A stretch of DNA of 32,000 nucleotides, taken from NCBI GenBank assembly GCA_963705375.1, contig OY970071.1, forward strand, positions 270,001 to 302,000, written 5' to 3'. Under the pieces are notes generated by a model. The model saw only the letters and a program-made list of their open reading frames with translations. It had not been told where the DNA came from and ran no database searches. Numbering within the stretch: the stretch's first letter is position 1; every line of letters starts with the position of its first letter. The translations under genes were made by a program, and so were the position numbers. Origin of the DNA: Candidatus Saccharimonadota bacterium. Its GTDB lineage: Archaea > Micrarchaeota > Micrarchaeia > Micrarchaeales > Micrarchaeaceae. Positions 813-21,707 of this stretch are shown piece by piece.

Positions 813-822
813 ATGACCTTCT

Positions 823-2066: not shown

Positions 2067-2167
2067 TTACTCCCTAATCGCCTTTGGCAGCTTTATCCCG
2101 TGCTGCCCGTCTTTGCGAACACCGCGTGCACGAACAGCATCCCGGTTTGAGCGTTATTTTGTAAGGC
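2067..2167 (-). pseudogene. Decayed fragment of the dCTP deaminase 3' end, a duplicate of 5413-5555
   Basis: The nucleotide sequence ttactccctaatcgcctttggcagctttatcccgtgctgc|ccgtctttgcgaacaccgcgtgcacgaacagcatcccggtttgagcgttattttgtaaggc aligns to the dcd 3' end, with a 39-bp deletion between two gctgc repeats. The translation retains …HAVFAKT. Confidence 0.6.
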
Positions 2168-2252
2168 ATCCACTTTCCATGTTTCAGTTTTGTGCAGCAT
2201 ATGCCATCTATATCCTGCAGTTAAGCGTGCGCACTCTTTTGGCAAAGAAAGG

Positions 2253-5200
2253 TCATGAGAGGTATTCCATGACTGTGCTAGGTGAATTGTTGTTATAATC
2301 AGTCCAGTAGACGTTGCCGCTGCTTCCGACGGCTATACCATACGGCCCACTCTGCCCTGACGCTATTGTGGCAATCTGCGAGCTTGCAGAGTTATACACC
2401 ATCACATTGCCCGAATAAGAATCAGTCCAGTAGACGTTGCCGCTGCTTCCGACGGCTATACTATACGGCCCACTCTGCCCTGACGCTATTGTGACCTGCG
2501 AGCCTCCTAAAATCTGCTCCATCACTGTGCCGTCACCAGCATTAGCCCAGTAGACGTTGCCGCTGCTGTCCACAGCTATGCCACAGGGATTGTGCTGTCC
2601 TGACGCTATTGTGGTGGTCTGCAAGCTTACTGAGTTATACTCCATAACATTGCCAGGAAGATCGTCAGTAGTCCAGTAGACGTTGCCGTGGCTGTCTGCC
2701 ACTATGAAATCTAGATTCATCTGTCCTGACGCTATCGTGGTGGTCTGCAAGCTTACTGAGTTATACTCCATAACATTGTTCAAATTAGGAGCGGTCCAGA
2801 AGATGTTGCCGCTGTTGTCGACTGCTAAACCCCAGGCCCCAGTTGGTCCAGGCAGTATTGTGGTCGGCGAGCCTCCGGGGGCATATTCCAGTACATTGCC
2901 ATAACCATAATTTGCCCAGTAGACGTGACCGTTGCGCATGGTTATGCCGGCAGGCTGAGCTTGTCCTGACGCTATTGTGACCAGCGAGCCTCCGGATGTA
3001 TGTTCCATCACATTGCTATTGCCCGGTGGAAAATAATCAGTCCAGTAGACGTTGCCGCTGCTGTCGACAGCTATGCCAGTTGGACCCATCTGTCCTGAAG
3101 CGAGAATTACAACATGGGTGAAGCTCGCTGTCTCGGCGGACGCATATGGATACATAGAAAAAGTAAACGGATTGTCAGTAGACAGATATGGGCCCATCCA
3201 GCTGTAGAAGACATATCCCGGACTTGCTACCGCATTGATAGTGATTGACGCTCCGGCCACATAGTTTCCGGCAGGGCAGCCAGGAGAGTTGGTTGGAGAA
3301 GCGCTGACAGAAGAGCCTCCTGTGCCGTACGAGAGCGAGAGCGAATAGCACTGAGCAAAAGTCGCTTGCTCGTTCATGCCAGGTACTTGCATATAAAAGA
3401 GCCACGGATTAGAAGTGGATAGGTAACTACCCATCCAGCTGTAGAAGACATATCCCGGACTTGCTATCGCATTGAAAGTGATCGGCGCTCCGTGCACATA
3501 GTTTCCGGCAGGGCAGCCAGGAGAGTTGGTTGGAGAAGCGCTAGCAGAAGAGCCGCCTATGCTGTTATATGAGAGTGTGAGAGGATAACATGTTCCAAAG
3601 TTCGCTTGTTCGTTGATCGCGTCTGGTATGTTGAATGTCCAGGGCATGGTTGTGTTTGAAAATGTGCCGGTCCAACCTGTGAAACCGTATCCAGGACTTG
3701 ACGTGGCCGTAAGTGTTATCGTGGTCCCGGCATAGAAGTTGTCATCGGGGCATCCGACAGAATTGGTTGGATAAACGCTGACAAAAGCACCTCCTGTGCC
3801 GAATGAGAGCGAGAGAGGATAGCACGTTCCAGAGGGAATTGTTGTGGTGCTTCCACCGCCACCACCGCCACCAGATCCTATGCAAGTGTACCCTGCCTGG
3901 CACTCCACCACAGTGCCAGAACCGCTGTCTACCCAGTACACGTTGCCGCTGCTGTCAACAGCTATGCCCGCAGGCGCATTCTGTCCTGTTGCTATCGGAG
4001 TAAGTGTGCCTCCAGAATACTTCATCACGTTGCCAGAGCCGAGGTCAGTCCAATAGACGTTGCCGCTACCGTCCAAGGCTATGTCTAAAGCACCAGTCTG
4101 TCCTGTCGCGAGGGTCCTTACTGTATGAGAGTTCGCAACATATTCCATCACGTTGGCAGATGAGGATTGAATGTTATCCAAGCTGCTAAGGAAAGTGTTT
4201 ATCCAGTAGACGTTGCCGCTGCCGTCAATTGTGATCAAAAGCGGCCCATCCGCTGTTGCTATTGTTTGAGTAGAGATGCCATTATACTCCCTGATTTCGT
4301 CCGAACCGAAGGCAGTCCAATAGACATTGCCGTTGCGGGCAGCTACGCCGATGGGCTCACTCTCTCCAGAAACAAGAACACTAGCAGCACTGCCAGAGTA
4401 GACCATCACGTTGCCGTCACCAGCAGAAGCCCAGTAGACCTTGCCATTGCCAAAAGTTATTCCCAAAGGCGAAGATAGTCCACTCGCAATAGCAGTCGTC
4501 ACGCCGGAAGAATACTTTATCACGTTGCCAGCACCCATATCCGTCCAGTAGACGTTGCCGCCATCCACGGCTATAAAGGATGGATTGCCGCCATTGAGAT
4601 AGGTAGCAAGCGCTGTCACAGTATTCGAACTCTTGACATACTCCATCACATTGGTAGAGCTAGATGGTGCTGCGGCCCAGTAGACGTTCTCACTGCTGTC
4701 GACCGTTATTCCAGTTACACCGTTCTGTCCGGAAGCAAGTATTATCAAATTTTCGGAGTGAGAGCCACCGCCACCACCGCCACCTCCACTTCCAGAGCCA
4801 AAGGCAGTAACCCGAGCATTCACCGATGCGACCTGCGCAACAAGGCCGGTTTGGCCGTTCTGCGAGTACTTCATCCACAGCGTCCCAGCGAAAGGAGTAC
4901 CCAGCGCATTGGAAGGAAGTCTGCAGGGGAAGTCAACGTTCTGCTGCGAACCCGCGCCTAGCACGATATTTGCAGCTGCATAAGCAGAATCGGCAGGGGC
5001 AGAAGAGCTGTTTGAACATCCAATACCTGTAACTGTAACCGCTTGTGAAGAGCCTATTGTTGCTGCGAGGACGCCGTTTGATATAAGGACCGGATTGCTG
5101 CACAGGTAGCCGACCTGTGTCACACAAGATGTACTTGTGGATGTGCCAGTGCTAAACACGCCCAAGCTGAACAGTGAAGCGAGAACAACCGCAATTATCA

Positions 5201-5288
5201 GGATAGCCCATCCGTACGTCATCAAATATTCCATCGCGGACTGTGCCCTTTTTCCGGTAGAGGCGAACCTCGCCATATCCCTTTGCAT
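2253..5288 (-). CDS. Giant pilin-fused surface adhesin. Domain order: class III signal peptide/pilin-like domain, beta-propeller (NHL/YWTD-like) repeats, three Cys-containing Ig-like modules, then a second propeller.
   Basis: The ORF is open to 5399, but Met38 (5288, MQRDMARFASTGKRAQSAMEYLMTYGW…) sits about 28 nt downstream of a TATA-like box. Poly-Gly linkers are present. There are more than 15 G(I/L)AVDSSGNVYW(T/A)D-type blades. Three modules match TCYPLSLSYGTGG…SPTNSPGCPAGNYV.G..IT..A.ASPGY.F..W.G. Confidence 0.8.
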   Translation of the reverse strand: MQRDMARFASTGKRAQSAMEYLMTYGWAILIIAVVLASLFSLGVFSTGTSTSTSCVTQVGYLCSNPVLISNGVLAATIGSSQAVTVTGIGCSNSSSAPADSAYAAANIVLGAGSQQNVDFPCRLPSNALGTPFAGTLWMKYSQNGQTGLVAQVASVNARVTAFGSGSGGGGGGGGSHSENLIILASGQNGVTGITVDSSENVYWAAAPSSSTNVMEYVKSSNTVTALATYLNGGNPSFIAVDGGNVYWTDMGAGNVIKYSSGVTTAIASGLSSPLGITFGNGKVYWASAGDGNVMVYSGSAASVLVSGESEPIGVAARNGNVYWTAFGSDEIREYNGISTQTIATADGPLLITIDGSGNVYWINTFLSSLDNIQSSSANVMEYVANSHTVRTLATGQTGALDIALDGSGNVYWTDLGSGNVMKYSGGTLTPIATGQNAPAGIAVDSSGNVYWVDSGSGTVVECQAGYTCIGSGGGGGGGSTTTIPSGTCYPLSLSFGTGGAFVSVYPTNSVGCPDDNFYAGTTITLTATSSPGYGFTGWTGTFSNTTMPWTFNIPDAINEQANFGTCYPLTLSYNSIGGSSASASPTNSPGCPAGNYVHGAPITFNAIASPGYVFYSWMGSYLSTSNPWLFYMQVPGMNEQATFAQCYSLSLSYGTGGSSVSASPTNSPGCPAGNYVAGASITINAVASPGYVFYSWMGPYLSTDNPFTFSMYPYASAETASFTHVVILASGQMGPTGIAVDSSGNVYWTDYFPPGNSNVMEHTSGGSLVTIASGQAQPAGITMRNGHVYWANYGYGNVLEYAPGGSPTTILPGPTGAWGLAVDNSGNIFWTAPNLNNVMEYNSVSLQTTTIASGQMNLDFIVADSHGNVYWTTDDLPGNVMEYNSVSLQTTTIASGQHNPCGIAVDSSGNVYWANAGDGTVMEQILGGSQVTIASGQSGPYSIAVGSSGNVYWTDSYSGNVMVYNSASSQIATIASGQSGPYGIAVGSSGNVYWTDYNNNSPSTVMEYLS
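2298..2493. repeat. Near-identical intragenic direct repeat (two ~73-bp copies, 123-bp period) inside the adhesin gene
   Basis: atcagtccagtagacgttgccgctgcttccgacggctata(c/t)…cggcccactctgccctgacgctattgtg occurs at 2298-2370 and 2421-2493. Confidence 0.85.
3193..3542. repeat. Intragenic direct repeat (237-bp period) encoding duplicated Ig-like modules
   Basis: cccatccagctgtagaagacatatcccggacttgcta…ggcagggcagccaggagagttggttggagaagcgct occurs at 3193-3305 and 3430-3542. More diverged copies lie at about 3660-3780 and 60-180. Confidence 0.8.
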
Positions 5289-5314
5289 CGTGGTCCTAAC
5301 ACAATCAGAAAGAA

Positions 5315-5330
5315 GGTATTTATTATTTCG
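5315..5330 (-). promoter_or_regulatory. TATA-like box for the adhesin gene
   Basis: The minus strand reads CGAAATAATAAATACC, ending 26 nt before the ATG at 5288. Confidence 0.35.
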
Positions 5331-5412
5331 CAATACGGCACCCACACTAGCCACACTAAACTTCATCTGGCGACAGTGCATCTGCAACGCTTTATGCAAG
5401 AAATTCCGGCAG

Positions 5413-5952
5413 TCACTCCTTGATGGCTTTTGGAAGCTTTATCCCGCGCTGCTCGTTGTACGTGCCGGTGTAGATCTTCTCCACCTTGCTGCTCGTCTTT
5501 GCGAACACCGCGTGCGCGAACCGCATTCCGGGCTTGAGCGTTATCTTGTAAGGCGCGTTGTTCACGACCTCTAACGTGATGGTGCCCTTGAATCCAACAT
5601 CTATTATCGTCGGAGGTATCGAAAGGCCGTACCTGCCCCATGTGCTCCTGAGCTCGACAAGGCCGACCAGGTCGTCGGGCATGCCTATGTATTCCATCGA
5701 TGAGAGCAGCACGTGCTCGTGCGAGTCTATTGAAAGAACCTTCGCGCCCTTCTGAAGGTCGTATGCCACTTTGACGCTTTCTTCTTTTGTAGGATCCATG
5801 ACGAAGTCAGGAGTGGGCTTCACATGCCTCGCTATCTCATCAGAAAGCCTGAGGTCTATCCCGTTCTCCTTGACAAGGCCATCTACGAACGGGTCTATCA
5901 CGAGCCTCTTGCTCTTTATCATGTTCATCAGGTCGAAATCTGAGAGTATCAT
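5413..5952 (-). CDS. dcd: dCTP deaminase (dCTP deaminase/dUTPase family)
   Basis: It starts MILSDFDLMNMIKSKRLVIDPF…GIDLRLS and contains …VELRSTWGRYGL…IDVGFKGTITLEV.N. This is the typical Dcd fold signature. The start was chosen at MILSD (5952); the ORF extends to 5976. Confidence 0.85.
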   Translation of the reverse strand: MILSDFDLMNMIKSKRLVIDPFVDGLVKENGIDLRLSDEIARHVKPTPDFVMDPTKEESVKVAYDLQKGAKVLSIDSHEHVLLSSMEYIGMPDDLVGLVELRSTWGRYGLSIPPTIIDVGFKGTITLEVVNNAPYKITLKPGMRFAHAVFAKTSSKVEKIYTGTYNEQRGIKLPKAIKE

Positions 5953-6011
5953 GCAAACACAAATTCCTTTCTGCAAATAACATTAATAAGCTTTCACAGA
6001 CAGTGCTCATC

Positions 6012-6590
6012 ATGTTCATCGCTTTCGAAGGCATCGACGGCTGCGGCAAGTCCACGCAGGCGGAACTGCTGTACAGCTACATGAAGCAGAAGGGCAGGTG
6101 CCTGCTCACTGACGAGCCTACGGATGGGATGACCGGAGTGCTCATCCAGGGACTGCTCAGGAGCGGGAGGCACATAGACCCGATGGCGCTTCAGCTGCTT
6201 TTCATATCTGACCGGACGGAGCACATGAACGAGTTCCTGCTACCTAAGCTCAAGGAAGGATATTCCATCATAACGGACCGCTACATGTTCTCATCGATAG
6301 CGTACGGCGCAGCAAGCGGCGTGGACAAGGAGTGGCTGATGCAGACGAGCAGCAAGTTCAGGCTGCCAGACGCTACTTTCGTGTTCGACGTCGATCCCGA
6401 GATAGCCATGCAGCGCCTGAAAAAGAAGAGCAACGAAGTGGAATACTTTGACAAGGTGCAGTTCATGGGCAAGGCAAGGGCCGCGTTCCAGAGCCTGAAG
6501 GAACACTACAAGAACTATTATTTGATAGACAGCAGCAAGAGCATCGAAGAGATACATTCTAATATAATTAAGATAATAGATACTCTGTAA
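6012..6590 (+). CDS. tmk: Thymidylate kinase
   Basis: MFIAFEGIDGCGKSTQAELL carries the P-loop, followed by …TDEPT… and DRYMFSSIAYG (DRY motif). A GTG at 6003 is an alternative start. Confidence 0.9.
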   Translation: MFIAFEGIDGCGKSTQAELLYSYMKQKGRCLLTDEPTDGMTGVLIQGLLRSGRHIDPMALQLLFISDRTEHMNEFLLPKLKEGYSIITDRYMFSSIAYGAASGVDKEWLMQTSSKFRLPDATFVFDVDPEIAMQRLKKKSNEVEYFDKVQFMGKARAAFQSLKEHYKNYYLIDSSKSIEEIHSNIIKIIDTL

Positions 6591-6598
6591 ATGAATGC

Positions 6599-6673
6599 GC
6601 TCCCATCGTCTAGCCCGGCCAAGGACATGGGGCTTTCAACCCCAGAACCCGAGTTCAAATCTCGGTGGGAGCA
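6599..6673 (+). tRNA. tRNA-Glu (anticodon UUC); CCA is not encoded
   Basis: I folded the cloverleaf by hand. Acceptor stem: GCTCCCA/TGGGAGC plus discriminator A. D stem: GTCT/GGAC. Anticodon stem: TGGGG/CCCCA with loop CT-TTC-AA. T arm: CCGAG-TTCAAAT-CTCGG. Confidence 0.9.
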
Positions 6674-6681
6674 TTTTACGC
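6671..6681 (+). repeat. Left copy of the casposon target-site duplication (GCATTTTACGC)
   Basis: An identical 11-mer lies at 21697-21707, directly outside each TIR. Its first 3 nt are the last 3 nt of tRNA-Glu. Each boundary is ambiguous by about 1 nt because the flanking bases also match. Confidence 0.8.
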
Positions 6682-6735
6682 TGGGATATAGCTAAGGAAA
6701 ACATAATGGACTCCTACTTTCCATAAATCTGAAAT
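6682..6735 (+). repeat. Casposon left terminal inverted repeat (54 bp)
   Basis: tgggatatagctaaggaaaacataatggactcctactttccataaatctgaaat is the exact reverse complement of 21643-21696. Confidence 0.95.
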
Positions 6736-6746
6736 ACCAATAGACT

Positions 6747-7475
6747 TTACTTATCGTCTTTCGGTTCTTCGGAGAAATAAGCAGCATCCTCTGCCCTTTC
6801 AAGTTCCGCTTCGTATCTTTGGTCAGGATCAATACCAGTTCCATCACAATAGATACATTTTTCGCCAGTGTTCGAGTCCTGACCTGCTACACAATCTGGA
6901 TTTCCACATTTGAGCTGTCTTTCTAATAAGGATATATCAATATTGAAGTCTTCGAGAATCAAGTCCCTGTAGTCCTCTGGATGTCTATAAGTAAGCCAGT
7001 CTTTTATCATATCCTCAAAAGCAAGTTCTATCTGATTTAGAAGTATCCCTGGGTTTATAAATATAATACTGTCCTTGTCTATCTCGACTGCGTTTTGAAT
7101 ATCATAAGTAAATTGTCCACCATTCTTGATTCGAGCCTCGTGAACTAAACCACATCTAAACTCATCATAAATGCGGCCTAATTGTTTAGAATCCAAATTC
7201 TTGAAATCGGGCAGATTGCTGCTAATCCAATCTTTAGTTCTTTCCCCGCTTTCATCGATGCCATATTCTGTTCGCGCTATTGCGTCTATTGCACTAAAGC
7301 ACAATATTCCCGCTCCGAACCCTGCTTTCTTCTCATTCAACAATCTGGCAGGTCTGAAGTAGAAACCAATTATCCTTTCCTGATACGCCTTTATCACTTC
7401 TACTGGATTGTCCGTGCTGATAAGCTGAGTAAAAGTATAGTCTGGCGCAAAATATACATTGTCTCCTTTTCGCAT
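6747..7475 (-). CDS. Hypothetical protein with a C-terminal CxxC…CxxC zinc ribbon (casposon cargo)
   Basis: It is a 242-aa ORF with the C-terminal motif CGNPDCVAGQDSNTGEKCIYCDGTG. I recognise no family for it. Confidence 0.55.
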   Translation of the reverse strand: MRKGDNVYFAPDYTFTQLISTDNPVEVIKAYQERIIGFYFRPARLLNEKKAGFGAGILCFSAIDAIARTEYGIDESGERTKDWISSNLPDFKNLDSKQLGRIYDEFRCGLVHEARIKNGGQFTYDIQNAVEIDKDSIIFINPGILLNQIELAFEDMIKDWLTYRHPEDYRDLILEDFNIDISLLERQLKCGNPDCVAGQDSNTGEKCIYCDGTGIDPDQRYEAELERAEDAAYFSEEPKDDK

Positions 7476-7617
7476 AAGATAATATTACTCTCTTGCTAAT
7501 AAATCCTTGCTCATGTTAATTTATTAGACCAAAAACGATGGGTTATTGCAAAGTCATACCAACAAAAAGGCTTAAATACGGCATAGAAACACTCTTATAT
7601 TTGGATGCAACCACGTC

Positions 7618-9618
7618 TTGAGAGTAGTACGACGTGATAATGTGGGCAATAGGCTTTTTCTTTCAATTGTAATAATGCTATTTGTCATGCTTCCTCTTGC
7701 TGCAGCGACATACGAGCCCGATGTCGCCTCGTGGACGTGTTATCAACATTTCTGCTATTCTCCGGGGGCACCATCTCTGTCGGTATCAGGCCTAGTTGCT
7801 ATAGATGGTGGGCAAAGCCTGCAGTTAACTGCGACACCTAATAATTTTACTGATGCAATGAGGGGTTTTATCTATTATTGGTATGCACCAACTGAACTTA
7901 CTGAATCTCCTAACTGCTATACGCCTGCTCTATACAATAGCACCTCTCTTTGGACGTATAGCAACACATGCACACTTATTGCAAATAGTAGCTTTTCAGG
8001 AACCGCTCAGGTTAACATAGAAGTAGAACAAGCGAGTATAACATACGCAGTTGATGGACGTATATTGCCTACTATTTTCGGTTCTGTATCTAAGTCAGTG
8101 TCAATAACTGTCAACCCTGCACTTACTGCACCAACAATCAGCACTCCGTCAATGGCGGCGATAGATGCAGGGCAGATTTCGACAATCTTGATGACCTCAC
8201 CTGCGACAGGGACGTCTCCTGCGTATCAGTGGTTAGAGGAGAAACCAAATGCGAGCGCATACATAGGCGCAGTTGACTGTGCCGCACCGACCACAATATC
8301 ATGCCGTTTCACCACACAAACCGCCGGCACATACTATTTTGAACTTGAAGCAACAGACTACGCAAGCAGCAAGATAAGCTCTCCTGTATCTGTGATTGTC
8401 AACCCTGAAGAGAACATACAAACAACTAGCATTCCGTCATCCTCGAAAAACGCTTTTGGCATAGTAAATGTGTCGCAAGGGTTCAGGACAGAGCGTGGCA
8501 GCAAGGTTGCCGGCGCAACTCCAGACACAACAGCATTTGGAATAGTCAACTCGACCGGAGGTGTCGGCGCATCTCCTTTGTTCCAGCTGAACTACACTTC
8601 AAACACGAACATAAACACCGAAAGCGGATTCAGGACAGAGCGTGGCAGCAAGGTTGCCGGCGCAACTCCAGACACAACAGCATTTGGAATAGTCAACTCG
8701 ACCGGCGGTGTCGGCGTATCTTCTTTCTTCCATCTCAACTATACTGCGTCAAAAGGGCAAACAAATAGTTCATCATACGCTTATTGCGTCTTCGCAGCGA
8801 AGATGTGCAACTATACAAAAGCAACCAGTTCACTGAACACTTACTACTGCACCTTCATAGCGAAGTTTTGCAACCACACTTACGCTAATGCAACATACCT
8901 TCCACAGAACGGGCAGTCAGTCAATCAGCAGTCCGGATTCAGGACAGAGCGTGGCAGCAAGGTTGCAAGCATAACGCCGAGCACACTGACAATCGACTTG
9001 GCGAAGACCGCTAACATGCTCAACTTCGCGATAGGCCCGTCAAACAGCACGGTCAAGTCAACAGGAGTAAGTACGATAGGTCCGTTTGGCACAGGTAAGG
9101 CAGTGACTGGATTCGCGAACCTGGCCGTATCTGCTGTGAACGCAACGCCAATACTGAGCGGCGCTTCCAAGTACACAATCAGAGGCATAAGTAACATAAC
9201 CGCGACTACGAGCGTCAGCAGTGCGACAGTGCCTGTGTTGCTGAAGAACATGACAGCGTCAGTAACGATAGAGCAGACCACTATATCACCATACGATTCA
9301 CAGATCCAACCACCCCTTGCTAATGGGACGTGTCCATCAGGATATGCTGCAGACGGTGGTGTTGCTGATTATGGCTCCAATGGTCAACTTCTCTATTGTC
9401 ATCTTATCCCAACTGCCTCTAGTGTATGTGTAACCGTCACTAATGAACCATATAATGAGATATGTAATGGGCAACCAGTATATTCTGTAACTCAAACGAC
9501 TACATCTGCCACCACAACTGTGATCCCATGGTCATATAATAACGTGACGCATGGTAACTCATGTGGTTACGTAGAAACATGTATCGGATATTCTTGTATT
9601 TTCACATACGAATGTTAA
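7618..9618 (+). CDS. Secreted, probably heavily N-glycosylated surface protein with internal 49-aa repeats and a Cys-rich C-terminus
   Basis: The signal peptide is …RLFLSIVIMLFVMLPLAAA. There are many NxS/T sequons. The SGFRTERGSKVAGATPDTTAFGIVNSTGGVG repeat occurs twice, plus a partial third copy. The start is uncertain: TTG at 7618 or GTG at 7642. Confidence 0.7.
   Translation: MRVVRRDNVGNRLFLSIVIMLFVMLPLAAATYEPDVASWTCYQHFCYSPGAPSLSVSGLVAIDGGQSLQLTATPNNFTDAMRGFIYYWYAPTELTESPNCYTPALYNSTSLWTYSNTCTLIANSSFSGTAQVNIEVEQASITYAVDGRILPTIFGSVSKSVSITVNPALTAPTISTPSMAAIDAGQISTILMTSPATGTSPAYQWLEEKPNASAYIGAVDCAAPTTISCRFTTQTAGTYYFELEATDYASSKISSPVSVIVNPEENIQTTSIPSSSKNAFGIVNVSQGFRTERGSKVAGATPDTTAFGIVNSTGGVGASPLFQLNYTSNTNINTESGFRTERGSKVAGATPDTTAFGIVNSTGGVGVSSFFHLNYTASKGQTNSSSYAYCVFAAKMCNYTKATSSLNTYYCTFIAKFCNHTYANATYLPQNGQSVNQQSGFRTERGSKVASITPSTLTIDLAKTANMLNFAIGPSNSTVKSTGVSTIGPFGTGKAVTGFANLAVSAVNATPILSGASKYTIRGISNITATTSVSSATVPVLLKNMTASVTIEQTTISPYDSQIQPPLANGTCPSGYAADGGVADYGSNGQLLYCHLIPTASSVCVTVTNEPYNEICNGQPVYSVTQTTTSATTTVIPWSYNNVTHGNSCGYVETCIGYSCIFTYEC
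8482..8705 (+). repeat. Near-perfect intragenic direct repeat (147-bp period)
   Basis: ttcaggacagagcgtggcagcaaggttgccggcgcaactccagacacaacagcatttggaatagtcaactcgaccgg is identical at 8482-8558 and 8629-8705. A partial third copy lies at 8948-8976. Confidence 0.9.
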
Positions 9619-9633
9619 CAAGAGGATGTTAGA

Positions 9634-10266
9634 ATGCTAAAGACAAACGTGTTAGTGGTCTTTCTCTTATTACTAACTAATCTGGCAAATGCTTCAACCT
9701 GCAATAACTCTGCACTATACGCATGCCAGAATCAACTTGCAAATCTGAATCAGAGCTATAACAGCTTACAAAACAGATACAACGCATTAAATGCCTCTTA
9801 TTTGAGTCTTACTAAGGAAAACCAAGAGTTAATTAAAAATCTTACCAATGTAACCTCCGAGCGAGATTTGTATAAAACATTGTATTATAATTCATCATTA
9901 AACAAATTATCGGTTGGGGATTTCTTAGCGCTCAAGAATAACATTAATTACACATATGTTCGTGTAAATCAGAGCTTAACACAAATTAAGAATAGTTTTG
10001 AAGAGAAAGTTACTCAAATAAACATGCGGATAAACAACTTTTATTTTATTGTAGTTATAGCAGTTGTTTTTGAGATAGCTGTGTTGCAGTTCAAGCTCTT
10101 AGACTTGATATTGCGAGTCAAGGTCGTCAACAAAGTACATAAGAGATATTCGAAATGGGTGAGAGAATCCAAATTTATAAAACAAGTTAGTACTTTTATT
10201 TTTGTGACTGAGACAAAAAGTGAAACCAAAAGTGACAAACATCAACAAAATGAACCCGTTCGTTAG
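9634..10266 (+). CDS. Membrane-anchored coiled-coil protein with a signal peptide and a C-proximal TM helix
   Basis: The signal peptide is MLKTNVLVVFLLLLTNLANAS. A heptad-like, Asn/Leu/Gln-rich region carries NxS/T sequons. The TM segment is FYFIVVIAVVFEIAVLQF. Confidence 0.6.
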   Translation: MLKTNVLVVFLLLLTNLANASTCNNSALYACQNQLANLNQSYNSLQNRYNALNASYLSLTKENQELIKNLTNVTSERDLYKTLYYNSSLNKLSVGDFLALKNNINYTYVRVNQSLTQIKNSFEEKVTQINMRINNFYFIVVIAVVFEIAVLQFKLLDLILRVKVVNKVHKRYSKWVRESKFIKQVSTFIFVTETKSETKSDKHQQNEPVR

Positions 10267-11269
10267 AAAGGGCATTTGCGTCTTTCTCACATCCTTTTTT
10301 GCAACTGTATTATTATTTGCTTTTGGACCGCCGATAATTCCATCAATATACAATGCAATTTGGGGTGCTAGTACAAAAGCATCTAATGCGGCTATGATTG
10401 GAAATGAAACAAATCCTGTATTAGTCGCCAAAACTTATATGAACTGGATTTCAAACGAAACATATCCTCCATACGCAACAAAACCGTATCTAAACGAAAT
10501 TGGATGGATGATTGTAAACGAAAGCAATTCTCCTAGACTTTTTATTCGCACTACGCTTGCCTCTTGGTTTATTTTTCAAAAGATTGGGAATTGTGGTGAA
10601 GACGCCTATTACTTTGCTGAAATGATGAACTATTCGGGATATCAAAGTAAGGTGCTGTTAGTGGAGGGTGGCGATCACGCATTTGCTGAATTTTACACAC
10701 ATAATGGAACAAAATTTATTGTTGATCCTTCAACTGATCAATTTGTAAATAATGCACTGGCTTTTGGTAATGGGCATATTTATTGGCCAAGAGTAGTGGC
10801 TCATGATCTATCTGGCAATGAAACAGACGTAACTAGTGAATTTTTAAGTAACACCTCTTTGCTCACGATAATACCTGTCAATAATTCAGTTCTAACAAAG
10901 TTTGTTACTGTTGACGTGGAAAGTACTTTCTTAAAGAACCATTCTCCAGAAATATACTCTGAGCCACTTTCTGTTATTAAACATTCTTTTTCTAATGATA
11001 CCCGATTCCAAGTAAGTCTTGGTTCGAATAGAGAGTATCAAATATCGACTACTGTAAACCTCTTCTTATTAACTTTTAAATTAATCCAACCACTTAATCT
11101 GACACAAAACAGAACCGTATATCTAGACATTAGCAAACTAGTTTCATTTAATGATGTTTATTACCCTAGTGCAATTATCGGTCTGTCTCTAGTAATCCTC
11201 TTAGTTTTGCTCACTTTGAGGTTAATTCCTGTTTTAACGTATAAAAACAAAAATAGAACTAGGATTTAG
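10250..11269 (+). CDS. Transglutaminase-like cysteine protease-fold membrane protein
   Basis: A Cys-His-Asp core pattern is present: GNCGEDAYYFAEMMNYSGYQSKVLLVEGGDHAFAEFY…GTKFIVDPS. There are N- and C-terminal TM helices. The ORF opens at 10220, and Met11 (10250) is the likelier start. Confidence 0.65.
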   Translation: MNPFVRKGICVFLTSFFATVLLFAFGPPIIPSIYNAIWGASTKASNAAMIGNETNPVLVAKTYMNWISNETYPPYATKPYLNEIGWMIVNESNSPRLFIRTTLASWFIFQKIGNCGEDAYYFAEMMNYSGYQSKVLLVEGGDHAFAEFYTHNGTKFIVDPSTDQFVNNALAFGNGHIYWPRVVAHDLSGNETDVTSEFLSNTSLLTIIPVNNSVLTKFVTVDVESTFLKNHSPEIYSEPLSVIKHSFSNDTRFQVSLGSNREYQISTTVNLFLLTFKLIQPLNLTQNRTVYLDISKLVSFNDVYYPSAIIGLSLVILLVLLTLRLIPVLTYKNKNRTRI

Positions 11270-11873
11270 GTTTGTCTGCCTTATAGAGTTCTCGGGTTAT
11301 CTTTTCTTCCATTTCTCCCTTGAATTTCCCAATTTCAAATGCCATTTGTGGACTAAGATGATCAATGTTCTTTAAGTATTGTTGCAGTTTTTTTGCTGTT
11401 TCTATAATTCCAGGCATATGTGGAAGATTGTATTTGTCCAACCTGCCTGCCTCTCCCCATTTTATTATAAATGCTAATACTTTTTCAATTTCAACCCTCT
11501 TTTCGGGTTTTTCAGATTCAGATTCAATAACTTTGACCTCTGTATGGTTGTGGTTTTCTTCGCTTTCTGAACTTTTCTCTCTCAGTTTCAATATTCTGGG
11601 CTTCAACACTTCGACTATTTCTGAATCCTTTACGAGCAAAAGACTGGTATGGTCTGGGGCTACGATAACGAAGGTAGAATCCTTAGTTCTATCGAGCCTT
11701 AAGGCATTGCATACCCTTTTTGGAAGGTATAGTTTGGCGGCATTGCCCTTAAAAGTCAACCTTCCTAGTTCAACCACTGTGCCTTCGTCTTCTTCAAAAC
11801 AGGTCAGCCCTCGAATATCTCGGTACATAATATCTCCAAAATAAGGAGCAGTAAGTATTACACTCTTTCTCAT
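11259..11873 (-). CDS. Hypothetical protein, possibly with an AbrB/SpoVT-like N-terminal DNA-binding domain
   Basis: GRLTFKGNAAKLYLPKRVCNALRLDRTKDSTFVIVAPDHTSLLLVKD resembles a swapped-hairpin domain. An acidic/Lys-rich linker follows. The domain call is weak. Confidence 0.45.
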   Translation of the reverse strand: MRKSVILTAPYFGDIMYRDIRGLTCFEEDEGTVVELGRLTFKGNAAKLYLPKRVCNALRLDRTKDSTFVIVAPDHTSLLLVKDSEIVEVLKPRILKLREKSSESEENHNHTEVKVIESESEKPEKRVEIEKVLAFIIKWGEAGRLDKYNLPHMPGIIETAKKLQQYLKNIDHLSPQMAFEIGKFKGEMEEKITRELYKADKPKS

Positions 11874-11920
11874 CGCTAATATTTAGGCTTCAACATAAGT
11901 TCTGATTTAATATTACCATT

Positions 11921-12529
11921 TCACCAAATTATTTTTACCTGGGCTCTATACTTTTCTTTATTCGTGTAATTTGCATAATGGGGAACTTTTAGAATTTTGA
12001 ATTCCTGTCCAAAGTTTCTTTTCAAGATGTTAAACGTATCATTACCAAACGTGATAACTATGGGATTATTAGCTCCTAAATCTTTCAATTCTTTTCGAAA
12101 GATTTCTACATTTTCTTTTTCAAATACTGGATTGGACTGCAAAAAGGCGACTACCTTAGCCGATGATTTTTGATCAAGGTCTTTGATAATATCCGTCATG
12201 TAACCGCCCCAATAAGGAGAATCTCTAAAAGCGAACCTTATTTTATAATCAGTTGCTTCAGGTCGGCTGTCATGAAAGTTTGCTAATGGAACTTTTATAG
12301 CGCCTCGCGAAATGTTTAAACCCACTAGCACAACATTAGGATTTAATTGAGAGAGCAGCACCTTATTCTTTTCTGGATCTAGAATGGTCAGGTCTCCGAC
12401 ATTGCTTTTAGGTTTCTTATTGTCTTCATCAGCCCAAATTGCCCAACTAGCATAATAGCCATACTTCTCCTTAATGAATTCGAATTTTTCTCTAGTAATG
12501 TAGGTTATGTACTTACCTCTTTTCTCCAT
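11921..12529 (-). CDS. Hypothetical protein, possibly of the uracil-DNA glycosylase superfamily fold
   Basis: VLVGLNISRG resembles the Mug-type GINPG motif. …ANFHD…, YMTDIIKD and …VPHYANY have spacing that recalls UDG motifs A and B. This is pattern recognition only. Confidence 0.5.
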   Translation of the reverse strand: MEKRGKYITYITREKFEFIKEKYGYYASWAIWADEDNKKPKSNVGDLTILDPEKNKVLLSQLNPNVVLVGLNISRGAIKVPLANFHDSRPEATDYKIRFAFRDSPYWGGYMTDIIKDLDQKSSAKVVAFLQSNPVFEKENVEIFRKELKDLGANNPIVITFGNDTFNILKRNFGQEFKILKVPHYANYTNKEKYRAQVKIIW

Positions 12530-12662
12530 ATTGCTCTTCCATAAGCCGTTTTATAGCATAAAGTATAAGTTCAGACTTGCTGTAGTCCTCCTTTACCTTG
12601 CTTTCGAGCCAGTCTAGCTGCTCTCGGCCTAGTGAGACCCTGGTTTGCTTCTTATGAGCCAA
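12513..12662 (-). CDS. Small ribbon-helix-helix (CopG/Arc-like) protein. It is below the ORF-track length cutoff.
   Basis: My own translation from TTG at 12662 reads (M)AHKKQTRVSLGREQLDWLESKVKEDYSKSELILYAIKRLMEEQYGEKR*. Its stop overlaps the start of 11921..12529 by 17 nt. Confidence 0.5.
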   Translation of the reverse strand: MAHKKQTRVSLGREQLDWLESKVKEDYSKSELILYAIKRLMEEQYGEKR

Positions 12663-12704
12663 ATCATCATCTACTGATTATGCTGATTTAACTACTTTGA
12701 ACAA

Positions 12705-13253
12705 CTACTCTTTAAGAATTTCCCAAGATATGCACCTAACGACCTGATGCTCAGGATGCACTAAGTTTTCTCTTCTTTCTTCTACTCTTGAACTTAGTGG
12801 TAACTTACAAACAGATTTAGCGATTAATTCGAACGAACTAAATAAAGGATCTAGGGATATTTTTGCCTGTTGATGTTCGTATCCAATTACAAATATTGCC
12901 TTTCTAATATTTTTTGGGTAGTTGATCAATTTGAAGGCATCTCCGATCGCTGAAATATTACCACTATACGGATGTAAGAGATTAACAGACCAGTTTTCGG
13001 CTTCTTTCCCGTTGTCACCATAGGGTCTAACAATCTTAAATTCCAATGCCCATTCATCGCCAAATGTTAAATCCGGAGTTCGTCCAGTGTGGGATGAGTA
13101 TCCTTTATCTGTTAAAAGTTCAGACAATTTTTTTATCAACTGTGGCTCACCATAGGGCCCAATTCCTGGTTTAAAAGTTTTAAAGACGGGTCTCGACAAA
13201 TCAAACTCTTTAAGTGTGTCAGCTATTAGTCTAACTAATTCATTTAGTTCCAT
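12705..13253 (-). CDS. PD-(D/E)xK-fold nuclease (restriction endonuclease-like)
   Basis: GRTPDLTFGDEWALEFKIVRP contains the PD…ExK arrangement. The gene heads a minus-strand operon with the RHH and UDG-like genes. Confidence 0.55.
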   Translation of the reverse strand: MELNELVRLIADTLKEFDLSRPVFKTFKPGIGPYGEPQLIKKLSELLTDKGYSSHTGRTPDLTFGDEWALEFKIVRPYGDNGKEAENWSVNLLHPYSGNISAIGDAFKLINYPKNIRKAIFVIGYEHQQAKISLDPLFSSFELIAKSVCKLPLSSRVEERRENLVHPEHQVVRCISWEILKE

Positions 13254-13314
13254 GATTACTTATATTCGAAGTAAGGCTTTTAAGGTTGGGTTGCAGTTGT
13301 GGTGTGGTGACTTG

Positions 13315-14016
13315 ATGGCACTAGGAAAGAACGAGGGCCAGAAGTATGAAGATATGATTTTTGAATCGCTCAAGAGGTTCGGATTTCTTTATCCCGGGAC
13401 AAGTCAAATGGGTATGGCCGGAGGTGTAGATGCCATCTTTTGCCATCACAATATGCCATATAATCTAGAAATAAAAAATGAATTAAAGGTGGATTACGGC
13501 CAGAAAAAACTCTCATGGAATAAGGAAAAAGGATGGTCTTTTTCTATAGACGACGATATAACAAGATTATATGTAAAGCACGTAAAAGTGTTAGAATTTA
13601 TTCAGAAAAAGAAAATAATTCCTCGCCGATATACAAAACCGCTGCACGAAATAACCTGCCAGGATGGCAAAGCAGATCAGAAAGCTTTCGAGGATCGCAT
13701 ACCCATCAACATTGCGGCTCTTTGGCGTTATTATTCTGAAAAGGAAGTGCATTATATTCAAATCGGCAGGGGATATGGGTTCTATCACCTCGATAAGGAT
13801 ATAGCAGAACTAGGAACACCACAATTCAACTGTGATCTGTTCTTACGACTTAGAGCAAAATATCATGATCATTATGATCGCTCTAGTGGATTTGCGAAGC
13901 CTACTCCCTGGAATTATAGTTTCTTTGCAGTACTAAAGGTAAAGAGCAAGCCAAAAAGATCAGAATTCAACCTAGAAGAAGGGAGGGGACAACGGCTTCC
14001 ACCAATCAAACCTTAA
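13315..14016 (+). CDS. Candidate type II restriction endonuclease (PD-(D/E)xK-like), partner of the adjacent methyltransferase
   Basis: GGVDAIFCHHNMPYNLEIKN shows a D…EIK pattern. The gene is convergent with the MTase, with their stops 29 nt apart. The ORF opens at 13216 but overlaps the neighbouring gene, so Met34 (13315) was chosen. Confidence 0.5.
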   Translation: MALGKNEGQKYEDMIFESLKRFGFLYPGTSQMGMAGGVDAIFCHHNMPYNLEIKNELKVDYGQKKLSWNKEKGWSFSIDDDITRLYVKHVKVLEFIQKKKIIPRRYTKPLHEITCQDGKADQKAFEDRIPINIAALWRYYSEKEVHYIQIGRGYGFYHLDKDIAELGTPQFNCDLFLRLRAKYHDHYDRSSGFAKPTPWNYSFFAVLKVKSKPKRSEFNLEEGRGQRLPPIKP

Positions 14017-14045
14017 TAGGCACAGCCTTTTGTATATAATATGTT

Positions 14046-14927
14046 CTACTTTATGTAATCCTCTAATTTGCTCGATTTTAAGCCCTTGTTTGCGTCGGGC
14101 CATATTTTTTCCAGATTCTTAGTAAATCTATAGTATCTAAGATTACTGGGTGCACTTATATCATCTGCATTCCTTATTTTTTTAACTCTATAGTTTATCA
14201 TATCTGCGTATGCGGGGTCTATCTCCACACCTATAGATTTTCGTCCGAGTTGCTTTGCAACAACTAGTGTAGTCCCTGTACCTGATGTTGGATCAAAAAC
14301 TGTATCTCCAGGCTTAGAAGAAGTTAATATTATTCTTAACAGCAGATCGATAGGTGATTGCTGTAAATGCGACCGTTTGCCTGCTTTGTCGCGTAACGGT
14401 TCATCTCCGGCCAGATAGCCCGATGTGAGTTCTCTAATATCCTCCCAGATATCAGTTACATACACCCCTTTTTCTCTAGGAATTTTCCAGTTTGCAGGCA
14501 TCGGCGGATCTATTCTCAATTTATTAAAGGTTCGCGGCTTGTCCCCTTTAGTAGCAAATGCAATTATCTGATATCCCTTTCCGTGACGTGCATTACCTGG
14601 AACTGCGGAAGTAAGTTTTTTCCAGATTATCACATTCTGCAGTTTCCACCCGGTTTCTCGTAATGCGTTTAGAACGTATTCTGTATTCTTTTCACGTTGC
14701 ATGAAATATATCGCTCCGCCATCTTTAGTGATTGTGTAGATACCACTCAATACCGCTCTAATCCAGTTCCAGTACTCTTTACTTATTTTAGCATCATCAA
14801 AATACTTGTAATCTTTATCCTGATTAAATGGCGGGTCAAAGAAAGTTAAATCCACTTCATCAGCTTTATGACTCTTGAAATAAAGTAGCACATCAGAATT
14901 TACCACGGTCGGCTCAAATATATTCAT
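14046..14927 (-). CDS. Beta-class N6-adenine/N4-cytosine DNA methyltransferase
   Basis: Motif IV (LTFFDPPFN) lies near the N-terminus and motif I (VFDPTSGTGTT) near the C-terminus. This is the permuted order typical of the N6_N4_Mtase family. Confidence 0.85.
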   Translation of the reverse strand: MNIFEPTVVNSDVLLYFKSHKADEVDLTFFDPPFNQDKDYKYFDDAKISKEYWNWIRAVLSGIYTITKDGGAIYFMQREKNTEYVLNALRETGWKLQNVIIWKKLTSAVPGNARHGKGYQIIAFATKGDKPRTFNKLRIDPPMPANWKIPREKGVYVTDIWEDIRELTSGYLAGDEPLRDKAGKRSHLQQSPIDLLLRIILTSSKPGDTVFDPTSGTGTTLVVAKQLGRKSIGVEIDPAYADMINYRVKKIRNADDISAPSNLRYYRFTKNLEKIWPDANKGLKSSKLEDYIK

Positions 14928-15097
14928 AACAACACCTCACTTTACGGTATACCTTAATTATCTTCCCTTCTTTTATATTCTTTTGCATGTACCGCAATGT
15001 TGACTTATTTATGCCTAGTCTCTTATGGGCTTTTTCACACATAATTATTACTTTATTACATAAGTATTTAAATATTACTCTATTTATTTATTACTTT

Positions 15098-15241
15098 ATG
15101 AACACACCACTATCTAGGACCACAATACTCATAGATAAGGAACTATGGAAGAAATTCAAGATCAGATCTATAGAAAGAGGAATATCTGCTTCCGAACTGC
15201 TATCTAATTTAATAAAAAAAGAACTCAGTGAAAAAAGTTGA
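15098..15241 (+). CDS. Ribbon-helix-helix protein, a possible controller of the R-M module
   Basis: The sequence is MNTPLSRTTILIDKELWKKFKIRSIERGISASELLSNLIKKELSEKS. A TATA-like TATTTAAATATT lies about 25 nt upstream. The gene is divergent from the MTase. The ORF-track start (14987) is probably too far upstream. Confidence 0.6.
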   Translation: MNTPLSRTTILIDKELWKKFKIRSIERGISASELLSNLIKKELSEKS

Positions 15242-15379
15242 AGCAAGAAAAAGCGCTTATGCTAACCAATCAAGCCAGCAGTACTCTTATGCCTCGAAGA
15301 AGCAGACTATTTGTATAGCGTTGCCATAAACGCATTTTGTGTAAATGTTTATGTAAATAAAAGTTTATATACCTGAGTA

Positions 15380-16483
15380 TCATACAGGTGTCTGACCACT
15401 CGAAGGTTTTTGTCTTGCCGCTTCTGCAAGAGACAACATTTCCCATTTCTTGTTTTTATCTTCTTCAAATTCATTCAACTTGGAAATAAAATCGGCATCA
15501 CCATATTTAAATATTCTTGCGGCTTTGATGTATCTGTCAAAAAGGTCTGTTAGATGTCCTCCTATTTTAGGAAATAATGTTTTCGTTATTGTTTTACTGG
15601 CTAGAAGTCGTTTGCCTTCACCGTGTCCTATCTTTTCTACAACTCTGTTAAATAACTTTGGATCTACTCCTGTAATTTCATAGAATTTCAGCGTAGATGA
15701 GAATCTCTTTAAATACGCTTTTAACTTTCTTCTAAATGCAGAATCTGCAAAGCGTGTTGAGAACTCGATTAAGAAATCAAGACGATATAGTTTTAGCCCC
15801 TCTATCTGTTGAATATCTTTGATTTTTTCATTTTCTGGAAGGTCAAATCTTTCTCTATTGAAATCAATCACACTATCGGAAAATATATCCTTGCCTGTTT
15901 TGATACAAGTAATAAAGCTCTGAATCATTCTTAAGGATCTAGCAAACGCGTGCCAATCTATTTCTAGAGCCAACACCGTTCTACTTTCTGACAAGTCCTT
16001 TATTGTTATTTTGTTATCCCTGAAATTCTGAGTTACTCGTCCGAAGGTATATTCTGCGATATTCTTGTCGAGGTCCGCTGGCAGATAATTTGGAGGAGTA
16101 TTCTTATCGAAGATCGAATCAGTATAGACTCCAAAATTATAGAGACCCAGTGGATCGGTTCCATGCCGGTACATTGCATGTGCCTTCCGCAGTTCTTGCA
16201 CAATGTTAGCTAGGTACCAGATGTCTTTCTTCTCTCTATTAATTGCCACTTTAGAAAGTTCCCATACCTTCTTGCCGTTTTCATCTAGTCGTTTGTGCAG
16301 TTCACCACTTTTTCTGAGCTCCTGCGAAATTTTATAGAGGCCCGATTCGCTTAATCCTGTGCCTTTTCTTAGTTCCTCCCAACTCCTACATTGTGTTTCG
16401 CCAGATGGACCAAAAAACAGACCTAGTAGTTTTCTTCTTGTTTCTGTCATCTTTTCTTTTCTGAACTCAGATACCTTTCCCAT
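15380..16483 (-). CDS. Hypothetical protein with an N-terminal winged-HTH
   Basis: RSWEELRKGTGLSESGLYKISQELRKSGELHKRLDENGKKVWELS looks like a wHTH. I recognise nothing in the rest of the protein. Confidence 0.55.
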   Translation of the reverse strand: MGKVSEFRKEKMTETRRKLLGLFFGPSGETQCRSWEELRKGTGLSESGLYKISQELRKSGELHKRLDENGKKVWELSKVAINREKKDIWYLANIVQELRKAHAMYRHGTDPLGLYNFGVYTDSIFDKNTPPNYLPADLDKNIAEYTFGRVTQNFRDNKITIKDLSESRTVLALEIDWHAFARSLRMIQSFITCIKTGKDIFSDSVIDFNRERFDLPENEKIKDIQQIEGLKLYRLDFLIEFSTRFADSAFRRKLKAYLKRFSSTLKFYEITGVDPKLFNRVVEKIGHGEGKRLLASKTITKTLFPKIGGHLTDLFDRYIKAARIFKYGDADFISKLNEFEEDKNKKWEMLSLAEAARQKPSSGQTPV

Positions 16484-16612
16484 GGAAACACAGACAGATT
16501 ATCCGAATAAGACTCTTATGTGTTTCTCTACTGAGTGGAGATTTTCAGGAAAGGCACTTTCCTAGTGGAAAATGACAGCTTCTAGTTCTGCATAGAATAT
16601 TCTGGTGTAAAT

Positions 16613-16918
16613 ATGTCTATAAAAGACAAACCAACAGAAGATACGGACGGGTTAACGTCTCACCTGAGCAGACGTAGAGAAGAGCTACTGTTGTGTCTTG
16701 ACAGCTATCTAGAGGCAATAGAAGTGAAGATAGCTTCAGGTTCACGCATAGATTTGCCAGCTGCACTAAAGAACAGAATAGAAGCAGTAGCTAGGCAAAA
16801 AGGCTGCTCGACTAACAAGGTGGCTGCTGTCATCCTTTCCAAATACCTTGACGAAGGAAAGAGGCTGCTGAGTTCGGACGAGAAGGAGGAGGAAGAAGAT
16901 GGTGCCTTCGACATATAG
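16613..16918 (+). CDS. Ribbon-helix-helix DNA-binding protein with an acidic tail
   Basis: RIDLPAALKNRIEAVARQKGCSTNKVAAVILSKYL is followed by EKEEEEDGAFDI. This is the first gene of the plus-strand core operon. Confidence 0.6.
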   Translation: MSIKDKPTEDTDGLTSHLSRRREELLLCLDSYLEAIEVKIASGSRIDLPAALKNRIEAVARQKGCSTNKVAAVILSKYLDEGKRLLSSDEKEEEEDGAFDI

Positions 16919-21642: not shown

Positions 21643-21696
21643 ATTTCAGATTTATGGAAAGTAGGAGTCCATTATGTTTTCCTTAGCTATATCCCA
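21643..21696 (-). repeat. Casposon right terminal inverted repeat (54 bp)
   Basis: It is the exact reverse complement of 6682-6735. Confidence 0.95.
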
Positions 21697-21707
21697 GCAT
21701 TTTACGC
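21697..21707 (+). repeat. Right copy of the target-site duplication (GCATTTTACGC)
   Basis: It is identical to 6671-6681. Confidence 0.8.

Follow-up and report, generated by a model that had tools for sequence, protein, structure and literature searches.

A complete 15-kb casposon in the genome of a tiny symbiotic archaeon, a member of the Micrarchaeota, carries genes for predicted surface proteins, one of which was copied in part from the S-layer protein of its host. The host genome is a single contig of 1.21 Mb, and the window analyzed here is a stretch of 32,000 nucleotides (G000:C1:270001-302000). Three cargo genes, gp666, p210 and p349, are enclosed by the terminal inverted repeats (TIRs) of the element. 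gp666 is a mosaic, and the sequence comparisons below portray it as a secreted glycoprotein assembled from S-layer and PKD-like parts of host-lineage surface proteins. p349 is a membrane-anchored PNGase homologue with the sequence, fold and catalytic triad of that enzyme type, and p210 is its probable glycoprotein partner. We read this cargo as a surface-remodelling accessory unit that would act at the host cell surface, plausibly excluding other invaders, and give the whole reading a probability of about 0.5; the identification of the parts is much firmer than that of their biological role.

In order to trace gp666 we searched the host genome with it and found a second matching place, inside a 1016-amino acid (aa) gene (C1:471015-474065) that encodes the S-layer protein (SLP). 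This protein matches PF05124 (E-value 3.7e-20) and TIGR01564, and has a signal peptide and many NxS/T glycosylation sequons; the proteins closest to it are from Micrarchaeota. Residues 352-556 of gp666 align with residues 776-944 of the host SLP (E 6e-50), and identity to the corresponding region of host-clade SLPs is 50% overall and 68-73% in the core. The copied stretch sits between the two PF05124 halves (host SLP aa 39-84 and about 926-1008), without a Pfam model of its own. All five invariant columns of the SLP alignment fall within it, and it includes the well-conserved GFRTERGSKVASITP...IGPSNSTV motif, with GFRTERGSK near-invariant. In the S-layer family test gp666 itself matched neither PF05124 nor TIGR01564. 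The motifs AFGIVN-x-GG-x-G..FQLNY and GFRTERGSKVA are partly triplicated in its S-layer-derived segment, and the 147-bp-spaced repeats of the gene (8479-8598 and 8626-8745, 93% identical, with a third partial copy at 8934; repeat families D10 and D13) are duplicated SLP motifs. A Cys-containing stretch at about aa 385-428 has no counterpart in the SLP. No full-length homologue of gp666 was found among 5.8 billion proteins, where about 90 matches are Micrarchaeota SLPs of about 1000 aa that span about 30% of gp666.

In a tree of the segment, gp666 groups with the host SLP and three close SLPs (99/99 support), which indicates that the segment came from the host's own narrow clade. DNA identity between the segment and SLP is 70-78%, and synonymous divergence (dS) is 1.5, so the capture was not recent. 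The ratio of nonsynonymous to synonymous divergence (dN/dS) against the host SLP is 0.19, which argues that the segment stayed under constraint and did not decay. The host SLP gene (locus L008, G000:C1:465000-478000) adjoins a gene for an 813-aa STT3/AglB oligosaccharyltransferase; its other neighbour encodes a secreted protein of 734 aa that is rich in sequons, has C-terminal transmembrane (TM) segments and matches no Pfam family.

The rest of gp666 has other sources. Residues 61-274 are 35% identical to the repeats of P0092 (BLAST, E 5e-19), a chromosomal TM-anchored PKD-repeat protein, and PF22352 matches gp666 at E 1.4e-3 and 19 bits, under the cut-off of 27. The protein has a single N-terminal hydrophobic segment (aa 8-34), 19 sequons against 10.2 ± 2.9 in shuffled sequences, and 18 Cys, eight of them within the last 95 residues; homologue searches found no relative of this Cys-rich tail. 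AlphaFold2, run with a 44-row alignment, gave no usable model, with a predicted local distance difference test (pLDDT) score of 42.5.

Reuse of S-layer pieces was observed at one other place in the order. Among its 151 genomes, an extra copy of the SLP segment in a protein not of SLP size was clear in the host and in G063 only. The copy in G063, a genome of the same family as the host, is a chromosomal 1610-aa secreted SLP paralogue (G063:C1:226038-230870; L105 10039-14871, minus strand) that combines duplicated SLP segments, including GFRTEKGSKVAAITP, with an unrelated N-terminal domain. No casposon genes lie near this gene, and S-layer segments are therefore reused in other surface proteins of the lineage outside casposons.

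A gene of the gp666 type is also present in a second casposon. P0094 (1059 aa) is encoded on a 12.5-kb metagenome contig, L010, that is a complete casposon with perfect TIRs of 79 nt (20-98 and 12366-12444); its Cas1 is 79% and its DNA polymerase (PolB) 53% identical to those of the window. P0094 begins with a canonical signal peptide, has N-terminal domains in common with gp666 (29% identity over 223 aa, E 9e-15) and carries the SLP motif, 79% identical to that of gp666. The remainder consists of MBG and Big-type (Big_3_5) adhesin domains. S-layer-derived secreted proteins thus recur in this casposon lineage, and the searches suggest that they are rare outside it. Only about 20-115 nt of the contig (JGI 3300035696, Ga0374055_0057816, 1-12559) lie outside the TIRs; the contig may represent a copy of the element that was excised or free, or else the assembly broke at the repeats.

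The product of p349 has hydrophobic segments at aa 14-44 and 312-343, which correspond to model helices at 13-57 and 317-348. It contains 13 sequons (5.0 ± 2.0 in shuffled sequences), 12 of which are between the TM segments, and this arrangement suggests that the catalytic domain is outside the cell. A match to Transglut_core was sub-threshold (E 4e-4). An exhaustive HMMER search assembled a family of 81 representative clusters, mostly near p349's own length, and the single relative returned by a word-indexed search of the 5.8 billion proteins reflects the sensitivity limit of that search. Alignment of 36 family members shows C125 and H153 in every sequence (36/36) and Asp at position 169 in 30; the three residues align with the GRCGEW, DHVW and VD motifs of yeast Png1. 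Compared with the Protein Data Bank (PDB), the family profile matched yeast Png1 at E 2.7e-16 and mouse PNGase at 1.8e-11, the next match being above 0.3; the alignment with Png1 spans GxCGE, DHxWxE and VD and a PNGase-specific extension, WSY..DVT..YI.

The AlphaFold model of p349 (pLDDT 91.7; predicted template modelling score, pTM, 0.86) consists of two N-terminal helices, an alpha/beta core of the transglutaminase fold, a beta-sandwich and a C-terminal helix. A Foldseek search of the PDB with this model placed mouse and yeast PNGase first (2f4m, 1x3w and 3esw; E 1.3e-7 to 3e-5), followed by Rad4/XPC, and the top eight matches are all PNGase or Rad4/XPC. The C-terminal beta-sandwich resembles starch-binding modules. 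p349 has in common with the eukaryotic cytoplasmic PNGases (yeast Png1, mouse and human NGLY1; 1x3w, 3esw, 2f4m) the fold, the triad and the flanking motifs. Unlike them it has no Zn-binding CxxC motifs (its sole Cys are C20 and C125) and no Rad23-binding or PAW domain, with the sandwich, similar to a carbohydrate-binding module, instead; it is also predicted to be extracytoplasmic and membrane-anchored, whereas they are cytosolic.

p210 has an N-terminal hydrophobic segment, predicted to be a signal peptide, a TM segment at about aa 131-162, a basic tail and nine sequons (4.0 ± 1.8 in shuffled sequences); its ectodomain is a predicted coiled coil, and a weak leucine-zipper match spans aa 42-72. 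The word-indexed search, at its sensitivity limit, returned p210 itself only. Inspection of gene neighbourhoods revealed relatives directly upstream of the closest p349 homologues (L056 and L058), and the pairing is thus conserved among them. The L056 relative and p210 are 31% identical (E 2e-19), and in L056, as in the window, the two genes of the pair overlap, the upstream one running into the start of the PNGase homologue. The one in L058 shares the motif RD-YYK-LYxNSS..SVxDF, and this pair lies in ordinary chromosomal surroundings (CysRS, PCNA and TFS genes). More distant Micrarchaeota relatives of p349, in G222 and G224, have no partner gene. Full-length relatives of p349 were found in four of 401 Micrarchaeota genomes, none of them in the host genus or family, and the host order gave one weak partial match. 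Given this sparseness, p210 and p349 appear to be foreign to the host lineage and to have arrived with the element.

A gene pair of this kind was described by Krishnan, Burroughs, Iyer and Aravind (2018, iScience; PMC6222260). The passages of that paper on archaeal PNGase homologues, those of Micrarchaeota included, predict that these proteins, which have a signal peptide and a C-terminal TM segment, are located at the cell surface. Their genes share an operon with that of a small membrane N-glycoprotein, and are often linked to restriction-type genes as well. The passages propose 'dual-action' systems that de-glycosylate surface receptors and so keep invaders out. The pair in the window agrees with these passages in the PNGase-related transglutaminase fold with intact triad, the N-terminal signal or TM segment and the C-terminal TM segment of p349, and in the restriction-type neighbours; the small sequon-studded membrane protein encoded directly ahead of it, p210, would be the counterpart of the published partner. 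With 210 aa, p210 is longer than the 160-180 aa given there for the partner; compared by description, it fits that partner. The pair differs in that it rides in a casposon, an element not named in the paper's passages on archaeal PNGase neighbourhoods, and in that it adjoins a gene for an S-layer-derived glycoprotein, unlike the system they describe.

A preliminary description of this DNA, made from the sequence alone, had noted three co-directional, tightly packed or overlapping genes inside the TIRs, and this was borne out (7618-11269, plus strand, TIRs of 56 nt). The features it had listed were recovered as well: the N-terminal hydrophobic segment, sequons, repeats and Cys-rich tail of the 666-aa protein, the hydrophobic segment, weak zipper and TM segment of the 210-aa protein, and the two TM segments and Cys-His-Asp transglutaminase-fold core of the third. 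Its view of the genes as one coherent module had to be given up. The GC content of gp666 is 0.47, close to that of the genome (0.478), while p210 and p349 are AT-rich (0.33-0.35); because composition and history differ, and because L010 shares the gp666-type gene only, the cargo appears to be composed of two independently acquired units, gp666 on the one hand and p210 with p349 on the other. The gap between gp666 and p210 is 15 nt, and p210 overlaps p349 by 47 nt (17 nt if p349 starts at its ATG). All three reading frames are intact, each protein begins with a hydrophobic segment, each has about twice the sequons expected from shuffling, and none matched NCBIfam.

Public gene calls start gp666 at Met24 (643 aa) and p349 at Met59 (291 aa), and both drop the predicted signal or TM segment. 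The longer forms of both are backed by homologues; for gp666 the longer frame is preferred since the related P0094 has a canonical signal peptide. A Logan contig of 7,960 bp from run ERR11594402 is 100% identical to window positions 8937-16896, and represents the same population rather than an independent copy. Its end coincides exactly with the third GFRTERGSK repeat of gp666. Short-read assemblies break at these internal repeats, so that genes of the gp666 type may be too sparsely represented in catalogues of metagenome genes.

Table 1. Features of the casposon and its surface cargo, in window coordinates.
Feature	Position	Strand	Basis or remark
tRNA-Glu (UUC)	6599..6673	+	ARAGORN; casposon immediately 3'
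Left TIR	6680..6735		56 nt, 100% complementary to 21643-21698
gp666, 666 aa, TTG start	7618..9618	+	Open reading frame
gp666 predicted signal peptide, aa 1-30 (Arg-rich n-region, hydrophobic core, AAA before T)	7618..7707	+	Hydrophobic window; P0094 signal peptide; cleavage site putative
gp666 aa 61-274, two putative PKD/Ig-like domains	7798..8439	+	BLAST to P0094 and P0092
gp666 aa 279-556, S-layer-derived segment	8452..9285	+	Match to host SLP; repeats D10/D13; tree; dN/dS
gp666 aa 560-666, Cys-rich C-terminal region, 8 Cys, no TM anchor	9295..9615	+	Cys positions
p210, 210 aa	9634..10266	+	Open reading frame
p349, 349 aa from GTG, about 339 aa from next ATG	10220..11269	+	Open reading frame
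p349 predicted catalytic-triad codons	10592..10726	+	C125 10592-10594, H153 10676-10678, D169 10724-10726
Cas1 C-terminus remnant, 40 aa, in cargo just upstream of methylase	14935..15054	-	53% identical to intact Cas1 aa 357-396, E 5e-12 (pairwise)
Casposase Cas1, 400 aa	20350..21552	-	PF01867, E 1.2e-59
Right TIR	21643..21698		Pairs perfectly with 6680-6735

The element has the marks of a casposon, namely a Cas1-type casposase, a family B DNA polymerase and cargo-enclosing TIRs with a target-site duplication. Its left TIR arm begins six bases past the end of the tRNA-Glu gene, and the duplication, ATTTTAC, flanks it outside each arm. The polymerase is an 895-aa PolB-like protein that matches DNA-polymerase PHROGs and is 31-56% identical to the PolBs of related casposons; it has no Pfam match of its own, and one of the related PolBs has a weak sub-threshold match to PF00136 (E 2.6e-4). 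An HNH protein and an N6/N4 methylase are also encoded within the element. p210, p349, the methylase and candidate nucleases share one low-GC block (0.33-0.39), in which the methylase, of restriction-modification (R-M) type, is near the pair. Since a Cas1 remnant sits inside the cargo, two casposons have probably recombined or nested to give this element, to the right of the surface and restriction cargo, which would be the older left part. DNA near the remnant (15309-15382) is 80% identical to a stretch 3' of the Cas1 gene of the second casposon of this genome.

That second casposon (G000:C1:908830-923555; L009 830-15555) has a Cas1 56% identical to the first and imperfect TIRs. Its cargo is a type III R-M pair (Res helicase and Mod methylase) and a DUF4268 protein, with no surface genes. 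Cas1 of this clade is present in 26 of the 401 Micrarchaeota genomes. Ten casposons were delineated by their TIRs, among them L009, L010, L049 and stitched regions of G015, G010, G186, G344, G002 and G102. The survey of other casposons that the preliminary description had suggested turned up the gp666-type gene of L010, the only delineated casposon with a homologue of this cargo; neither L009 nor eight further Micrarchaeota casposons encode homologues of the three proteins. At least one secreted, membrane or multi-TM protein rich in sequons was found by a heuristic screen in seven of the ten, and these proteins are mutually unrelated. Surface cargo therefore seems common but heterogeneous in Micrarchaeota casposons. 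Examples are a 507-aa protein in G186, a 311-aa protein in G102, and a 606-aa protein together with a Zn-ribbon, TM, Cys-rich protein of 243 aa in G194. The PolB match in G194 ends at aa 474, directly ahead of the 606-aa gene, and the 606-aa protein (L049), conceivably a C25-type protease, has no Pfam match. The secreted 507-aa protein of G186 was considered as transglutaminase-like because of GDCKD...ADH...LDT motifs, and was rejected with an hhalign probability of 0.4% and no Pfam match. A full-text literature search returned no paper on casposons in Micrarchaeota.

A mechanism can be proposed from these parts. gp666, without a membrane anchor, would dock onto or into the host S-layer lattice through its SLP-derived segment and display two putative Ig-like domains and the Cys-rich domain. 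p349, held in the membrane by both ends, would expose its catalytic domain and the carbohydrate-binding-like beta-sandwich outside the cell, and as an amidase of the transglutaminase fold it would remove or edit N-glycans on surface glycoproteins; p210 and the heavily glycosylated SLP are the likely substrates. Together with the adjacent R-M and nuclease genes, the surface cargo would most likely act in the manner of lysogenic conversion by temperate phages, where altered surface receptors block the adsorption of competing viruses or mobile elements, to the benefit of both the carrier cell and the casposon. Alternatively, the net effect of surface conversion may be a changed cell-cell contact. 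A bolder version takes the conserved GFRTERGSK...IGPSNSTV segment for a portable 'plug' that co-assembles with the S-layer and displays variable ectodomains of the casposon, which may be the Ig-like and Cys-rich domains in gp666 and the MBG and Big domains in P0094. With a glycan-stripping enzyme at its side, this would amount to transposon mimicry of the cell wall that excludes rivals or promotes element-spreading contact between cells, a proposal that we regard as speculative and, on present evidence, improbable.

Several observations weigh against surface remodelling as the function of this cargo. Docking of gp666 is purely conjectural, its predicted structure being of low confidence (pLDDT 42.5); the captured segment is outside the Pfam-defined S-layer domain, and gp666 is a singleton. 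P0094 contains two further short SLP pieces in scrambled order, which fit recombination debris equally well as a docking motif. None of the three proteins was matched in PADLOC. We know of no archaeal homologue for which PNGase activity has been demonstrated, and the transglutaminase fold equally supports protease or cross-linking chemistry.

The last point leads to an explanation in which p349 is a protease or cross-linker of S-layer subunits and gp666 its substrate, decoy or competitor. The model for this would be PeiW and PeiP, prophage-encoded pseudomurein endoisopeptidases that serve as cell-wall lysins. The Foldseek matches of p349 do include putative cysteine proteases (3kd4, 3isr), factor XIIIa and, at low rank, PeiP (8z4f, E 0.13, rank 46); the catalytic triad is common to all these enzymes, and the three copies of the invariant SLP motif in gp666 could be a recognition site. 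Yet the profile similarity is PNGase-specific, with Png1 far ahead of the next PDB match, the extension beyond the triad (WSY...DVT..YI) aligns with Png1, the best folds are all PNGase or Rad4, and the operonic partner p210 is rich in sequons, as would be expected for a glycan substrate. We hold this explanation to be decidedly unlikely. An adhesive function starts from the attached life of Micrarchaeota on other archaea. In this view gp666 would serve as an adhesin displayed on the S-layer, the PNGase pair would trim glycans at contact sites, and the casposon would spread a trait of attachment or partner choice, not of defence. This agrees with the putative Ig/PKD domains that gp666 has in common with large membrane-anchored, adhesin-typical repeat proteins such as P0092, with the adhesin-type MBG and Big_3_5 domains of P0094, with the abundance of pilin-fused adhesin-like genes in the host genome just left of the casposon, and with the secreted or membrane sequon-rich cargo found by the screen in seven of the ten delineated casposons. 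The sequences, however, suit adhesion and receptor masking alike, R-M cargo adjoins the pair here, and PMC6222260, in its passages on such pairs, ties them to restriction genes rather than to adhesins, so that we consider adhesion unlikely.

The three genes might also be passive passengers that recombination brought into the element (for gp666, repeated recombination with the strongly expressed S-layer gene), of no use to the element and little or none to the host. The singleton mosaic gp666, the scrambled SLP pieces of P0094, the Cas1 remnant that betrays a recombinant element and the lack of these genes in the other casposon of the genome and in most related casposons would be in keeping with this. 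Against it stand three intact frames with an intact triad, a sequon enrichment of about 3 to 4 standard deviations above shuffled sequences, a dN/dS of 0.19 in the SLP segment despite saturated synonymous change, and the retention of the SLP motif and the N-terminal domains in a casposon whose PolB is just 53% identical; in our judgement there is little chance that the genes are mere passengers. Least probable is a link to a virus-like transmission stage, as its relic or its precursor, which the preliminary description had entertained, with gp666 as spike, p210 as fusion or coiled-coil protein and p349 as egress enzyme. The trio is superficially like an envelope set of glycoprotein, coiled-coil TM protein and wall-active enzyme fold, and the unusable model of gp666 leaves room for a structural likeness to spikes. 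Nevertheless, none of the three proteins has a match in PHROGs, tblastn against 50,697 phage and archaeal-virus GenBank records found nothing, and IMG/VR yielded no close relatives. The p349 model resembles PNGase and Rad4 and no viral spike or fusion protein, a search of BFVD with it gave weak transglutaminase-like matches only, gp666 is composed of cellular S-layer and PKD-like parts, a p210-p349 pair is found beside housekeeping genes in L058, and Pfam and PHROGs scans of the casposon revealed no capsid or packaging gene. A virion relic is thus not supported by sequence searches with all three proteins and by fold comparison of p349 alone.

Remodelling of the host surface or superinfection exclusion, raised in the preliminary description as another option, is now the best-supported reading, given the match of p210 and p349 to the pair proposed to act against invaders in the passages of PMC6222260 cited above. 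Homologues that are ordinary chromosomal surface proteins had been named there as a counter-argument. It applies in part: gp666 is indeed built of parts like those of the SLP and PKD-repeat proteins of the lineage.

The nearest parallel in function is the conversion of hosts by temperate phages, in which lysogenic conversion and superinfection exclusion are brought about, for example, by the O-antigen-modifying gtr or oac cassettes. There, as proposed here, an integrated element encodes enzymes that alter the glycan coat of the host, which would block adsorption of competitors. The two differ in type of element, domain of life and chemistry (sugar removal against addition), and exclusion by the casposon is deduced from its genes. 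Casposons have been known as self-synthesising transposons with DNA-handling cargo. In those described by Krupovic et al. (2014; PMC4046053) the cargo is nucleic-acid-related, variable and horizontally acquired. The window element shares with them Cas1, PolB, HNH, TIRs, a target-site duplication and a position beside a tRNA gene, and its cargo, too, is variable and was acquired horizontally. It differs in its surface and membrane cargo, which had been flagged as unexpected, and the terms 'membrane' and 'surface' occur 0 times in that paper. Among S-layer proteins, aa 352-556 of gp666, including GFRTERGSK, are like those of Micrarchaeota (SLP_Mh of Ca. Micrarchaeum harzensis, bioRxiv 10.1101/2021.04.28.441871; PF05124/TIGR01564), but gp666 is an S-layer-derived chimera without both PF05124 halves and most of the approximately 1000-aa protein.

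Casposon cargo, surface PNGase systems and S-layer-associated proteins are all already known; what would be unusual here is a transposon that mimics the S-layer of its host. The window casposon and its close relative L010 carry proteins predicted to act on the envelope, one of them visibly copied from the host SLP. To our knowledge mimicry of the archaeal cell wall by a transposon, through an S-layer segment that docks into the lattice, would be previously undescribed if true, and in that case the SLP-derived segment would provide a natural handle for the display of proteins on S-layers. The p210-p349 pair is a compact, mobile candidate for the 2018 prediction that surface PNGases de-glycosylate receptors against invaders, and it is of interest for how the PNGase/Rad4 fold of eukaryotes arose. 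Because the cell surface mediates DPANN symbiosis, these casposons suggest that mobile elements can change the surface through which such archaea interact.

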